Below are positions 7,854-19,909 of a stretch of DNA of 23,006 nucleotides, in pieces. Made by a program: the position numbers and the translations under genes. The stretch is from a virus (lineage: Duplodnaviria; Heunggongvirae; Uroviricota; Caudoviricetes), in the IMG/VR virus record IMGVR_UViG_2617270967_000008; one strand, 5' to 3'. The first letter of the stretch is position 1. Each line of letters begins with the position of its first letter. The notes beneath the pieces were generated by a model. That model ran no database searches. It was given only the letters and a program-made list of their open reading frames with translations, and was not told the origin of the DNA.

Positions 7854-8180
7854 TCAGGGTGCAGAAGGACTAAAGATAAACGTTTTCTTCACGCCTTTAC
7901 ACGGCCTGTCCTTCTCAAATCGCCATTTTGCCATCGCCTTTACAACCTGCTCATCAAACAAATGGTGCGGCTCTGAACGGATAAACTCAATTCGGGTGAC
8001 AGTACCATCAGCACCAATATCAAACTTCACATCAACCCGTCCCTTTATATAATTTGCCGCTGCATAGGCCGGATATTGTGGTAATGCCTTAACCAACTGT
8101 CGGGGCATATCTGTTTTATGTTGCGTACAGCCCATAACCAGAGAAGACAACAAAATAATTAACGGAAGGTTTCTTTTCAT
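7854..8180 (-). CDS. Lipoprotein with TonB C-terminal-domain-like region (moron at the bor-equivalent position)
   Basis: Signal peptide plus lipobox (LVMGC); YPAYAAANYIKGRVDVKFDIGADGTVTRIEFIRSEPHHLFDEQVVKAMAKWRFE aligns to the TonB C-terminal motif pattern. Start ambiguous (8186 or 8180). Confidence 0.65.
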   Translation of the reverse strand: MKRNLPLIILLSSLVMGCTQHKTDMPRQLVKALPQYPAYAAANYIKGRVDVKFDIGADGTVTRIEFIRSEPHHLFDEQVVKAMAKWRFEKDRPCKGVKKTFIFSPSAP

Positions 8181-8196
8181 TTTCATTCCCGGCACA

Positions 8197-14133: not shown

Positions 14134-14165
14134 CCCGCCCGCCACTCACTGCGGGCTTTTTTTTG
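14134..14165 (+). terminator. Plus-strand hairpin followed by T8
   Basis: CCCGC-cactcact-GCGGG then TTTTTTTT on the + strand; the opposite orientation to the surrounding genes. Confidence 0.5.
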
Positions 14166-14171
14166 CCCATA

Positions 14172-14199
14172 GAAAAGCCCCTCCGGAGAGGGGCTTTTT
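14172..14199. terminator. Bidirectional rho-independent terminator
   Basis: AGCCCCTC-cgga-GAGGGGCT flanked by AAAA and TTTT. Confidence 0.65.
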
Positions 14200-14439
14200 A
14201 CAGTGGTAGTGTAGACAATTTTGCATGGTGCCGGGTGCCTCCCGGTGAGTTCAGTATCAGCACCTGAACCCGCACAGAAAGGATAAGGGTCGGTGACAAA
14301 ACACCAGTTGCTGATTGCCCCTCCGCACAGGGGGATTCACCATGCCAGTTTCTTTTAACAAACTCCCCGCAAACCAGACAACAGTCAACCGCCTGAATTG
14401 TGAGGTATTTAAAAATTTCAACGGGTAACTGATACCCTG

Positions 14440-15041: not shown

Positions 15042-15181
15042 CGTGACGTTCCTTTGGGTGGGTGAGCCAACGCCCGGGAGCGATCTGCCCACAGAGAAAG
15101 TCACACTGACCACTCCGTAAGCTCACCCCCGAAAGGCTCTGTGGTTGATATGCGCCGGGCGTGGCGCGGATACAAAAAAGG

Positions 15182-15210
15182 CCCGCAAAAGCGAGCCGGG
15201 AAAAATAAGT
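15182..15210 (-). terminator. Terminator after the tRNA cluster
   Basis: Minus-strand GGCUCGC-uuuu-GCGGGCC (one G-U pair) followed by UUUUUUGU. Confidence 0.55.
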
Positions 15211-15211
15211 C

Positions 15212-15288
15212 TGGCGCGTTGTACTGGATTCGAACCAGTGACCGATTGCTTAGAAGGCAATTGCTCTGTCCGGCTGAGCTAACAACGC
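15212..15288 (-). tRNA. tRNA-Arg (anticodon UCU)
   Basis: Hand-folded cloverleaf: acceptor GCGTTGT/ACAACGC, D-arm GCTC/GAGC, anticodon loop CTTCTAA, T-arm ACTGG-TTCGAAT-CCAGT, discriminator G, encoded CCA. Confidence 0.85.
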
Positions 15289-15304
15289 AGGATACAGATA
15301 ATGA

Positions 15305-15378
15305 ACCGCCTTCGGGGATCCGAACTCCGCGCAACCAGCTTCGAAGGCTGGCGCTCTTTCCTGATGAGCTAATGGCGG
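15305..15378 (-). tRNA. tRNA-Arg-like (anticodon UCG) with non-canonical features; possibly degenerate
   Basis: Hand fold: D-arm GCTC/GAGC, anticodon arm CCAGC-CTTCGAA-GCTGG; T-loop TTCGGAT with one A-C mismatch in the T-stem; acceptor 6/7 paired, starts C1-G72, no encoded CCA. Confidence 0.5.
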
Positions 15379-15385
15379 TATGTGA

Positions 15386-15461
15386 TGGTGGCCCTTGCTG
15401 GATTTGAACCAGCGACCTGGCGATTATGAGTCGCTCGCTCTCACCACTGAGCTAAAGGGCC
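15386..15461 (-). tRNA. tRNA with anticodon CAU, resembling E. coli tRNA-Ile2 (ileX-like) rather than tRNA-Met
   Basis: Hand fold: acceptor GGCCCTT/AAGGGCC, anticodon loop CTCATAA, T-arm GCTGG-TTCAAAT-CCAGC, encoded CCA; overall resemblance to ileX as recalled. Confidence 0.8.
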
Positions 15462-15489
15462 GAGCCAAAAAATAATAATCAGATGAAAA

Positions 15490-16203
15490 TCAATAATCAA
15501 GCCCTTGCCTGGATACATATCTGTCTGGCGGGAAGCCATAATAGCGGTGAAATACAGAAATAAAGTAGGACCTGCTTGAATAACCGCATTTTTCTGCTAT
15601 AGCCTGTCCATATCCATGCCGGGAACATAACATATTTACAGCAACACGCATCCGCTCTTCCAGCAACAAGCGACTGAACATGCCCCCTTCATTTTTCAGT
15701 TTTGTCTTTAACAAACTCTCACTCATATGCAACTGTAGAGCAATCGCACAAAGCGTCCAGCTTGCTGATATATCTGTCTGAATTATCGCCCTGACTTTGG
15801 CACTTATGCTGGATAAACATCCACTTAAAAACAATGACATCCGTTCATCTGTTTCAAACAGAGACAGGCAGGCCATCATAAGAAACATATCCGTGGCCTC
15901 TCCGGAAAATCCCTGGCTGGTAATTAAAGCCGCAGCCAACGCAGGATTGTTGGGTTCCAGCAACAGGTAAAGCGGAATGTCAGTCAGACGAGTCCTCGTC
16001 AGCTTATGCTGACTTTCCAGATATTGACTTACGACGGATTCGCTTATATCGACAATTTTAACTTTGCCATAATGCATAAGGAAAAGCTCCCTGATGCATT
16101 TGGTGGCCAGAACAACTGAGCCTGGCTTAAGTGACAACGTATCCTTTTCAAGAAAAATATTAATTGGGGAGCAAACCATGATAACTGAACAGACAACAGC
16201 CAT
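15490..16203 (-). CDS. AraC/XylS-family transcriptional regulator (AppY/EnvY-like; prophage regulatory cargo)
   Basis: C-terminal double-HTH (...LLKTKLKNEGGMFSRLLLEERMRVAVNMLCS...AEKCGYSSRSYFISVFHRYYGFPP) resembles EnvY/AppY; N-terminus MAVVCSV like AppY MDYVCSV; AT-rich. Confidence 0.85.
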   Translation of the reverse strand: MAVVCSVIMVCSPINIFLEKDTLSLKPGSVVLATKCIRELFLMHYGKVKIVDISESVVSQYLESQHKLTRTRLTDIPLYLLLEPNNPALAAALITSQGFSGEATDMFLMMACLSLFETDERMSLFLSGCLSSISAKVRAIIQTDISASWTLCAIALQLHMSESLLKTKLKNEGGMFSRLLLEERMRVAVNMLCSRHGYGQAIAEKCGYSSRSYFISVFHRYYGFPPDRYVSRQGLDY

Positions 16204-16237
16204 TATAATTTTACTTTCATTAGCAATTGGTTAGCTC

Positions 16238-16268
16238 AATTATAGCCCCAAAAGGTAAATTATCATCA
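16238..16268 (-). promoter_or_regulatory. Putative sigma-70 promoter for the AraC-family gene (-10 TATAAT, -35 TTGATG, 19-bp spacer)
   Basis: Minus strand reads TTGATGataatttaccttttggggcTATAAT about 30 nt upstream of the start codon. Confidence 0.5.
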
Positions 16269-16321
16269 ACACATAAGCAAAGGACTGACAGGTGTCGCCC
16301 CCCACCAGCCGCCCATTCACC

Positions 16322-16350
16322 ACAAATAAAAAGCCTTCAGGACTGAAGGC
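16322..16350 (-). terminator. Terminator overlapping the 3' end of the small wHTH gene
   Basis: Minus-strand GCCUUCAG/CUGAAGGC hairpin followed by UUUUUAUUU. Confidence 0.6.
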
Positions 16351-16534
16351 GTCTGTAACAACCGCACTGATAGTCTGCCAGACCCACCATAACAAGCTGG
16401 GTCAGTATTAACTGGCAGCGTTCGCGTGAAAGGTAAGTATTCTGCGCAATCTCCCCGACGGTCGCCGGTTCGGTGACGCTTAATTCATTAAACACCACTC
16501 TGGCGGTTTCTGTCATATCCTGCTGTTTTAGCAT
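16337..16534 (-). CDS. Small (65-aa) putative winged-helix DNA-binding protein, first ORF after pR'/tR'
   Basis: ATG 16534 (MLKQQDMTE...) with GGAAAAGGGA upstream; TVGEIAQNTYLSRERCQLILTQLVMVGLA resembles an HTH recognition helix. Confidence 0.45.
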   Translation of the reverse strand: MLKQQDMTETARVVFNELSVTEPATVGEIAQNTYLSRERCQLILTQLVMVGLADYQCGCYRRLQS

Positions 16535-16656
16535 GTCTTTTTCCCTTTTCCGGTTAACGTGACACACCAATAACTCTTGTCGAAAAAGCCAGCAAGCTGA
16601 AAGACAGGTATTCACCGCCACCAGCGCGTTTACTGTACTGACGCGATTTCAGTCAT

Positions 16657-16680
16657 AAAAACCCCGCCAGGCGGCGGGGT
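16657..16680 (-). terminator. tR'-like terminator immediately downstream of pR'
   Basis: Minus-strand CCCCGCC-gccu-GGCGGGG followed by UUUUU. Confidence 0.7.
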
Positions 16681-16685
16681 GTAAA

Positions 16686-16755
16686 AAATCTTCTAACGTC
16701 AGGCATAAAACGCCCATCGTTAGAGCAAATTTACCACAGATTCGGGAAAAATCAA
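16686..16755 (-). promoter_or_regulatory. Late promoter pR' with qut-like region (-35 TTGATT at 16755-16750, -10 TAAATT at 16733-16728)
   Basis: Minus strand GGTAAATTTGCTCTAACGATGGG closely matches the lambda pR' region GGTAAATTTGACTCAACGATGGG as recalled; starts 6 nt after the Q stop. Confidence 0.75.
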
Positions 16756-16760
16756 CAACA

Positions 16761-17582
16761 CTATCGCGTTACCCTCTTTAACTGCCGCTCCGCCCATGCC
16801 TCTTCAATGTCAAACCGAACCACCAACGTATCGTAAAAGCGTTTCACTGATTTTTTCCACGTATCAAGCGTGATAGCACTCGTCACTTTGCATATGGCAT
16901 TAAATGCCTCCGTTGATGGTAGTCTTTCACAGCCACGACCACCACAACGCTGGCAGTCTCTGATAACAGGCATACCACGTTTTACCGACTCTTCACGATG
17001 AATGGCGACACCACGCCCACGGCAATCCTTACAGGCGGTGGAAACCTCACCCTTTCCGCCACACTCCGGACAGGCAACTTTTACCACCTCCCTGACTTTT
17101 TTCCATTCTTCCCAGTAAGACGGATACACACCTTTCGTACACTTTGCCCATACCGGCGGCTTACCATCCGGATACTGGACCTTGTTTGTAAAAACTACGC
17201 TTTCAATAAATTTTTCCCCATAGCAACAAGGGCACTGCTTTTTACTCGCTGCGCTGCGGGCATAATCCTCAAAAGCGTACGAAGCCATAATGCGCATCAC
17301 TACCGGTTTTATTTCTGCCGGGAGTTTTCTTAACGCCGCCACGCGATCACACCGACTGAGTGCATATTCTGTCAGCAATTCTGTTGCCCGCTCTCTGTCA
17401 TTCATACTAATGCCCATTTTACCAAGGAACGCAGAAAACCCCATCTCAGCCCGATTCTGTGTCATGCCCTGCGCGGCCATCACATCAGTGATACTCAGCG
17501 CATCTTTCGACGTTGAGGCCGATGCATCAGTCAGGCCGGGGGATTTTGGGGAGTAGTATTTCGGTAAATCTTCCAGTTTCAT
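16761..17582 (-). CDS. Q: Late-gene antiterminator Q (lambda Q family)
   Basis: Alignable to lambda Q at the N-terminus (YSPKSPGLTD...DVMAAQGM), zinc-binding cysteines, and C-terminus (TLDTWKKSVKRFYDTLVV...LKRVTR); 273 aa with insertions. Confidence 0.85.
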   Translation of the reverse strand: MKLEDLPKYYSPKSPGLTDASASTSKDALSITDVMAAQGMTQNRAEMGFSAFLGKMGISMNDRERATELLTEYALSRCDRVAALRKLPAEIKPVVMRIMASYAFEDYARSAASKKQCPCCYGEKFIESVVFTNKVQYPDGKPPVWAKCTKGVYPSYWEEWKKVREVVKVACPECGGKGEVSTACKDCRGRGVAIHREESVKRGMPVIRDCQRCGGRGCERLPSTEAFNAICKVTSAITLDTWKKSVKRFYDTLVVRFDIEEAWAERQLKRVTR

Positions 17583-19462: not shown

Positions 19463-19618
19463 TTACTCCTCAGGTTCGTAAACTGTGAAGACAGCGACCT
19501 CCGTCTGGCCGGTTCGGATTCGTACCTCGCAGAGGTCTTTCCTCGTTACCAGTGCCGTCACTATGACGGTTAAACAGATGACGATCAGGGCGATTAACAT
19601 CGCCTTTTGCTGCTTCAT
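19463..19618 (-). CDS. hokD: Hok/Gef-family type I toxin (HokD-like, 51 aa)
   Basis: MKQQKAMLIALIVICLTVIVTALVTRKDLCEVRIRTGQTEVAVFTVYEPEE is near-identical to HokD as I recall; AAGGAG RBS; an upstream in-frame ATG gives a mok-like extension. Confidence 0.85.
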   Translation of the reverse strand: MKQQKAMLIALIVICLTVIVTALVTRKDLCEVRIRTGQTEVAVFTVYEPEE

Positions 19619-19909
19619 AGCCTGCTTCTCCTTGCCTTTCGGCACGTAAGAGGCTAACCTAGATTTGCCGTTCATAGATTGAGCCTCAGATTAATGTTAA
19701 GCGTCTTGCAGGACGCGTAATGTTAACTGGGGCTTTTCTCTATCTGCCTTTTGGTATTCATGCCTGAGACAGATAGCCTCAAGCACCCGCAGCAATTCTA
19801 CTTAACTATCCTTTCCCCGCAAATCGTTTTTATCCCCAGCGACAAATCGAATACACCACCAGCGCCACCGCCATTGCGATCCCTACCGTTGTGAATGCCT
19901 CAGGCCAGG

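Follow-up and report, generated by a model that had tools for sequence, protein, structure and literature searches.

A psrB allele in a lambdoid late region: an AT-rich cassette of 801 bp flanked by a conserved winged-helix gene and tRNA genes

The Psr proteins are AraC-type regulators encoded by prophages of E. coli O157:H7, and one of them, PsrB, whose gene has been characterized since 2011, is the closest relative of the protein analyzed here. As summarized in reviews, PsrA and PsrB induce gadE, yhiF and hdeA and thereby repress type III secretion encoded by the LEE. The reviews further report that deletion of psrA raises type III secretion in O157:H7, that deletion of psrB alone has little effect on secretion in these strains, and that psrB supplied in trans represses it. 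PsrB is described there as binding to the hdeA promoter (-132 to -45) and to the gadE promoter and as raising survival at pH 2.5-3.5 and in mice. PatE is described as acting in much the same way, and the identity of PsrA and PsrB is given as 90%. In the literature gadE and the acid-fitness island are described as targets of each of PatE, GadW, YdeO and AppY. The laboratory that described the Psr family equates psrA with ECs1087 (PMC13502914). According to the same paper, psrA is down without the sRNA HnrS and up after pulse expression of HnrS, which represses hha; the effect on psrA is considered indirect by its authors. HnrS itself is encoded within the late regions of Sp9, Sp10 and Sp12 (2026 HnrS paper). 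Z2104 of EDL933 is annotated as an AraC-type regulator of prophage CP-933O. The published placement of z1789 in CP-933N (OI-50) is at odds with psrA being ECs1087 in Sp4.

The window, i.e. the whole stretch of 23,006 nt that was analyzed, contains the locus under study at 15490-16534, and all features described below lie on the minus strand. The gene order is Q, a winged-helix gene, psr, ileZ-argN-argO, TerB, an esterase and the lysis genes. This confirmed the original prediction, from which the analysis started, in its placement of a small winged-helix ORF and an AraC-family regulator between pR'/tR' and the tRNA cluster, including the coordinates. The AraC-type gene (15490..16203) encodes a protein of 237 aa, whose assignment to the AraC/XylS family was borne out by Pfam matches above the gathering cut-offs for HTH_AraC (45.5 bits, cut-off 26.6) and HTH_18 (39.8 bits, cut-off 33.6). 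Together these matches form a C-terminal double helix-turn-helix spanning residues 155-230. The protein also matches phrog_1450 with an E-value of 7e-99. Its start codon at 16203 is supported by the N-terminal motif M-x-x-[VT]-C-S-V-[IV], as this motif is common to the full-length relatives PatE, GadW, YdeO and AppY. The Sakai annotation begins ECs1087 and ECs2191 at Met43, and both proteins were extended to the conserved upstream ATG for comparison. On this basis the protein shares 233 of 237 residues (98.3%) with ECs2191 of Sakai Sp11 and 214 of 237 (90.3%) with PsrA (ECs1087) of Sakai Sp4. The four substitutions relative to ECs2191 are A103V, C152G, H196Y and I202V, the last three of which fall into the DNA-binding half.

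ECs2191 was assigned as psrB (Z2104) by elimination. O157:H7 genomes contain exactly two copies of the gene, and no psr was found in Sakai Sp10. ECs1087 and ECs2191 are identical at 215 of 237 positions (90.7%); this agrees with the published value for PsrA and PsrB and thus supports ECs2191 as PsrB. In ATCC 43894, a presumed close relative of EDL933, the copy of the ECs2191 type is found at 1.907 Mb, which fits the expected site of Z2104 as roughly estimated by gene count from the OI-51 coordinates. The prophage at potC in the same strain has the Q type of the window and lacks psr. Judged by its sequence, the AraC-type gene is therefore an allele of psrB and as such already known. The expectation of a regulator of the type that acts on acid resistance and virulence in EHEC was thus upheld by the identity to both Psr proteins and by a common gene order.

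The relationship to other regulators of acid resistance is more distant. Over the full length the protein is 37% identical to PatE, 35% to GadW, 31% to YdeO and 28.6% to AppY, and all four share with it the start motif and the C-terminal double helix-turn-helix. EnvY aligns only at residues 96-233, that is with the DNA-binding domain, and GadX likewise aligns with the DNA-binding domain only. AppY and EnvY, to which the regulator had been likened, were thus rejected as its nearest relatives; PatE and GadW are closer than AppY, and the comparison that had been suggested with AppY, EnvY and the prophage-borne AraC regulators of EHEC gave PsrB as the nearest protein. The best match among the NCBIfam models is YdeO over the full length (108.6 bits, below the cut-off of 348), and the C-terminal half matches GadX (87.4 bits, below the cut-off of 500). 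These matches place the protein in the acid-resistance subgroup; as both remain below their cut-offs, it is an orthologue of neither.

The surroundings of the gene were compared with those of the two Psr genes in Sakai. PsrB of Sp11 has the same length, the same start motif and the same order of small ORF, psr and ileZ, and the 110 nt upstream of the gene, including a TATAAT hexamer, are identical. The late regions also share the layout of TerB, DUF3927, SASA esterase and holin. In contrast to the window, where Q is a PF03589 protein of 273 aa and three tRNA genes are present, Sp11 has a DUF1133-type Q and two tRNA genes. PsrA of Sp4 differs by 23 substitutions over 237 residues; like the gene in the window it is located directly upstream of ileZ-argN-argO, but the adjoining small ORF in Sp4 is frameshifted (79 aa). 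The order small ORF-psr-ileZ is common to Sakai Sp4, Sakai Sp11 and an Stx2k phage. Sp11 carries pch between Rz and the terminase and Sp4 has pchA nearby, whereas a tblastn search of the whole window with PchB revealed no Pch/PerC gene (best E-value 1.5). In Sp4 and Sp11 pch is located between Rz and the terminase; of the ORFs in this interval of the window, those tested encode a TonB_C-domain protein and a 91-aa product without family match. The association of Psr with effector loci and Pch on the same prophage was not found within the window, which ends before the tail end of the prophage, the usual site of effectors. As no Pch/PerC gene was found in the window and the virulence branch of Psr function depends on a LEE-positive host, this branch may not apply here.

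The late region begins with the antiterminator gene Q (16761..17582), which was identified by Pfam PF03589 (Antiterm, E-value 5e-51); a near-identical gene carries the RefSeq label antitermination protein. A candidate pR' of the extended -10 type, TTGATT-16-TGgTAAATT, was read off the sequence at 16728..16755 and scored below the threshold of the promoter scan. Just 3' of Q and this candidate lies an intrinsic terminator resembling tR' (16655..16680, hairpin 16680-16661), which was detected by the scan and by RNAfold and consists of a stem of 8 bp, seven of them G-C pairs, followed by a U run (-17.2 kcal/mol). The 65-aa winged-helix ORF follows at 16337..16534 and is preceded by AAGGGA, which resembles a Shine-Dalgarno sequence. 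Its stop codon is overlapped by a second hairpin terminator found in the scan (16325..16350, hairpin 16350-16333; -11.0 kcal/mol for the 41-nt segment 16360-16320), and the prediction of a terminator upstream of the AraC-type gene is thereby substantiated. The 28 nt that separate the psr stop codon from ileZ contain no predicted terminator. The tRNA cluster ileZ(CAU)-argN(UCG)-argO(UCU) was annotated at 15212..15461 with ARAGORN, Rfam and the RefSeq and Sakai annotations. The first terminator downstream of psr is the one after argO (15172..15197, hairpin 15197-15180; detected by the scan, -14.0 kcal/mol in RNAfold). In the scanned region (15100-16900) terminator-like sites were above chance, with seven found against 2.1 +/- 1.5 expected in shuffled sequence, whereas promoter-like sites were at chance level (three found, 2.0 +/- 1.4 expected).

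The 65-aa ORF is a real gene, as its low dN/dS shows. Compared with a Salmonella homologue it shows a dS of 1.37 and a dN of 0.075 (dN/dS 0.055), and compared with an E. coli homologue dN/dS is 0.088, which places the constraint at 0.055-0.09. The product matches phrog_331 with an E-value of 7e-37 and is named 'TrmB family' by PGAP; Pfam TrmB yields 17.3 bits (E-value 0.0044), below the cut-off of 25.6. In a confident AF2 model based on 32 homologues (pLDDT 89.3), a bundle of three helices (residues 4-17, 26-33 and 37-49) precedes a beta-hairpin wing formed by two strands (53-56 and 59-62), as in a winged-helix fold. The best Foldseek matches are winged-helix domains of IclR proteins (TM 0.81, rmsd 1.5 A), followed by OhrR and SelB, with E-values of only about 1e-3, as expected for a domain of 60 residues. 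A profile search of the PDB sequences with the 65-aa protein retrieved nothing significant, and a literature search by the locus names of its counterparts in Sakai and EDL933 yielded unrelated papers only. The K-12 regulator gene ydeO is likewise preceded by a 65-aa ORF, safA; BLASTP found no similarity between the two small proteins, and their equal length was therefore regarded as coincidental.

The winged-helix protein has homologues with 77-98% identity in Escherichia, Shigella, Salmonella, Klebsiella, Citrobacter, Buttiauxella and Scandinavium, and temperate phages with homologues include phiP27, SfV, Stx2a phages, phiNP, cdtI and mEp460. The counterpart in phiP27, L23, is 96.8% identical, is likewise located after Q and its terminator and has the same hairpin at its 3' end. 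In phiP27 and in many prophages of Salmonella and E. coli it is an N6/N4 DNA methyltransferase gene, instead of psr, that comes next. The Salmonella prophages and many of those in E. coli carry the winged-helix gene after Q, sometimes behind inserted cargo, followed by the methyltransferase and holin, and have no psr. Homology with the winged-helix modules of other prophages starts at the tR'-like terminator (16655..16680). Conversely, psr occurs without an intact small ORF, which is absent in strain A34 and frameshifted in Sakai Sp4 and in K_EC180. As each of the two genes occurs without the other, the small one is a backbone gene that heads the late operon, and it is no partner of Psr. Many lambdoid phages of enterobacteria have it conserved as their first late gene behind tR'. 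Thus, the earlier view of the small ORF as regulatory cargo held with respect to the winged-helix fold and to its being a real gene, and has to be given up with respect to its status as cargo linked to psr.

These findings bear on a reading in which the winged-helix protein and the AraC-type regulator form a two-gene unit, with the small protein controlling psr. The two genes adjoin and are co-oriented in most psr-bearing prophages, and the modeled fold of the small protein is one that would bind DNA. However, the small gene has a much wider distribution than psr and adjoins the methyltransferase or different genes in Salmonella, Klebsiella, phiP27, SfV and further phages, and both the loci with psr and a missing or frameshifted small gene and the break in the homology blocks between the two genes argue against a fixed pair. 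This reading is therefore considered very unlikely. It also appears quite improbable that the phrog_331 protein is a dedicated controller of the adjoining variable cargo slot or of the phage tRNA genes. Such a controller would be comparable to the C proteins of restriction-modification systems, and through it expression of the cargo would be coupled to late transcription.

The DNA specific for psr was delimited by comparison with phiP27 and strain A34; from the prophages bearing the methyltransferase, no border other than the right one of the winged-helix module was obtained. Homology between phiP27 and the window extends from 16678 to 16267 and is found again from 15465, 4 nt before ileZ. The breaks in this homology define a psr-specific cassette of 801 bp (15466..16266), which comprises a promoter-like site, a 5' leader, psr itself and 24 nt of 3' flanking sequence. 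In phiP27 the order is small ORF, DNA methyltransferase and ileZ, and the hairpin shared with the window there lies upstream of the methyltransferase gene. The same slot thus holds psr in the window and an N6/N4 DNA methyltransferase in phiP27. A34 has the Q type of the window and lacks the small ORF; its homology stops at 16621 and resumes at 16306, and the region upstream of psr travels with the gene also in this strain without the winged-helix gene. In seven other loci psr occupies the same slot downstream of Q and upstream of ileZ. The psr gene has a GC content of 43.7% and its upstream 100 nt of 38.8%, as opposed to 52.3% in the window, which corroborates the predicted AT-richness of the gene. 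Presence/absence polymorphism at a fixed site of the backbone combined with a deviating base composition is characteristic of a moron. Of the promoter and terminator that a moron would bring along, a site with 10 of 12 consensus matches is found at the left edge, such sites occurring at chance frequency in this region, and no terminator is predicted between psr and ileZ.

The left edge of the cassette coincides with the -35-like hexamer of this site, ATGATA-16-TATAAT (16239..16266), which is located 35 nt upstream of the psr ATG. The predicted perfect TATAAT is indeed present, with the -10 hexamer at 16244-16239, and it is invariant in 7 of 7 aligned alleles (77-98% protein identity). This invariance is only modest support for a promoter, because the last 110 nt upstream of psr are highly conserved throughout in the same seven-allele alignment. 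Judging from the consensus match and the conservation, psr probably has its own promoter of the sigma-70 type; of the claim that the gene is preceded by a promoter of its own, the hexamer was verified and the promoter is retained as a candidate. A further candidate promoter, TTGATT-17-TATTAT, was found in the scan at 15472..15500, overlapping the psr stop codon, and would probably serve the tRNA genes. In phiP27 a TATTAT is located at the identical distance from ileZ within otherwise unrelated sequence. Transcripts starting at psr may also read through into the tRNA genes.

Data from O157:H7 indicate how psr genes are expressed in lysogens. When EDL933 was analyzed by strand-specific RNA-seq without induction, Z2104 gave 1-37 reads and Z1789 0-18 across 11 conditions. 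These low but mostly non-zero counts indicate that the psr genes are weakly expressed in lysogens. The predicted expression in the lysogen thus holds for the O157:H7 copies, and it appears probable by extension for the allele in the window. The low counts would also suit a psr gene that lacks a promoter of its own, is transcribed solely within the Q-dependent late transcript upon induction, and serves the phage during lytic growth. Such a gene would be expected at the position of psr, which follows Q and the candidate pR' in the same orientation and is separated from them by intrinsic terminators only, and the match to the promoter consensus is statistically at chance level. Several observations argue against this alternative: reads were obtained in almost all of the 11 uninduced conditions, deletion of psrA alters secretion in uninduced cultures, psrA responds to HnrS, and the cassette starts at the -35-like hexamer and keeps its upstream region wherever it is found, including A34. 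Exclusive late transcription is thus unlikely, and transcription of psr from a promoter within its own cassette remains the preferred reading.

Among 5426 complete E. coli genomes, megablast detected the gene in 726, with at least 99% nucleotide identity in 591, and its location immediately before the phage tRNA gene ileZ is constant. In all 726 carriers at least 80% of the gene is covered in one place, and the translation was checked for seven alleles. The nearest match over the 1.7-kb locus is a human stool isolate with a 4.8-Mb genome (99.8%), whose AraC-type gene is 100% identical at the nucleotide level, and alleles with 99.9% identity occur in chicken isolates, human isolates and O111:H8. 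At most 63% of the window is covered by any single complete genome, which shows that the prophage is a lambdoid mosaic. The dN/dS of psr is 0.21-0.45, which indicates a looser constraint than that on the winged-helix gene and is still well below 1. The looser constraint, the AT-rich DNA and, according to the reviews, the small effect of a psrB deletion on secretion in O157:H7 would be in line with silent or decaying xenogeneic cargo that is kept off by H-NS and has no effect in this host. This possibility is regarded as improbable, since dN/dS is well below 1, since coverage of the gene (at least 80%) was retained in 726 of 726 carriers and 591 of these reach at least 99% identity, and since induced PsrB is reported in the reviews to raise acid survival and survival in mice. 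The small effect of the psrB deletion nevertheless indicates that the native contribution of this type of allele may be small.

The locus is most probably a psrB allele carried in an 801-bp AT-rich cargo cassette of a lambdoid late region, between the winged-helix gene and ileZ-argN-argO, and acting as outlined in the following; we hold this explanation with high confidence. The identity of the gene and the anatomy of the locus were established here, and the targets are taken by analogy from the published O157:H7 alleles, from the closest of which the protein differs at 4 of 237 residues. In the lysogen, psr would probably be transcribed at a low level from its own promoter with the -10 hexamer at 16244-16239, and the upstream hairpin would insulate it against read-through. 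The HnrS data and the AT-rich DNA suggest that psrA is kept down by Hha/H-NS silencing, and owing to its AT-rich DNA the gene in the window is probably held down by H-NS/Hha as well. Upon induction, RNA polymerase modified by Q would proceed from pR' through both terminators and transcribe psr. The protein, with a GadW/YdeO-like N-terminal domain and the C-terminal double helix-turn-helix, would switch on the GAD acid-fitness island by binding to AT-rich sites within the promoters of gadE and hdeA, as deduced from the O157:H7 alleles. In LEE-positive hosts, the induced GadE and YhiF would repress type III secretion.

Two modest additions result from this analysis, neither of which alters the current understanding of Psr. 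A PsrB-type allele occurs also in a mosaic prophage whose sequenced 23 kb contains no Pch/PerC gene, and psr occupies a defined slot of 801 bp that is filled by a DNA methyltransferase in other phages. Psr is an example of how prophages plug into the GAD acid-fitness island and, in EHEC, into the control of type III secretion.

Based on sequence comparison, the site between the conserved gene for a 65-aa winged-helix protein (16337-16534, minus strand) and the phage tRNA gene ileZ is a variable cargo slot. In the window it is occupied by the AraC/XylS regulator gene psr (cassette at 15466-16266), whereas the segment of phiP27 compared with it (L023, 3771-4944) carries an N6/N4 DNA methyltransferase gene. 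The homology of both flanks between the window and phiP27 reaches the edges of the slot. In many prophages of Salmonella and E. coli a methyltransferase gene likewise comes after the winged-helix gene. An nleL-bearing prophage at potC in ATCC 43894 (L024, 1615000-1664999) shares the Q type of the window, and the winged-helix gene, psr and the tRNA genes are all absent after Q in this prophage.

A promoter-like site on the minus strand (TTGATT-17-TATTAT, 15472-15500) overlaps the psr stop codon just 5' of ileZ. In phiP27 a TATTAT is located at the same distance from ileZ, within surrounding sequence that is otherwise unrelated to the window. A scan of the window sequence predicted no terminator between psr and the tRNA genes. 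The tRNA gene itself (15386-15461, minus strand) was classified by ARAGORN as tRNA-Met(CAT) and is annotated in RefSeq and in Sakai as ileZ, tRNA-Ile(CAU).

In the Sakai annotation the two psr copies, ECs1087 and ECs2191, begin at Met43 and encode 195 aa (L002, 28804-29391, and L006, 5933-6520). An in-frame ATG further upstream extends both to 237 aa. The N-terminus of this longer form reads M-x-x-[VT]-C-S-V-[IV], a motif common to PatE, GadW, YdeO and AppY, and the 237-aa form is also the one used by PGAP for psr. The location of psrA (z1789) is given in reviews as CP-933N / OI-50, in disagreement with a 2026 paper (PMC13502914) that identifies psrA as ECs1087 in Sp4. In K-12 the psr relative ydeO is preceded by the 65-aa ORF safA (safA-ydeO at L008, 4927-5960), just as the 65-aa winged-helix ORF precedes psr. 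This layout was rejected as a true parallel, and the likeness appears to be a coincidence, because BLASTP detected no similarity between SafA and the winged-helix protein of the window.

In Sakai Sp4 and Sp11, pch lies between the lysis gene Rz and the terminase genes; in the window this interval contains an ORF of 113 aa (7854-8195, minus strand) whose product carries a C-terminal TonB domain (E = 1.4e-14). The STnc100 sRNA family is represented by a full-length Rfam match (14165-14374, minus strand; 145.6 bits against a gathering score of 47), flanked by DUF3927/TerB genes on one side and a SASA esterase gene on the other. A further Rfam match, over the full length of the sok antitoxin RNA (19613-19788, minus strand; 112.4 bits), points to a type I toxin-antitoxin locus of the hok/sok kind within the prophage's early region.
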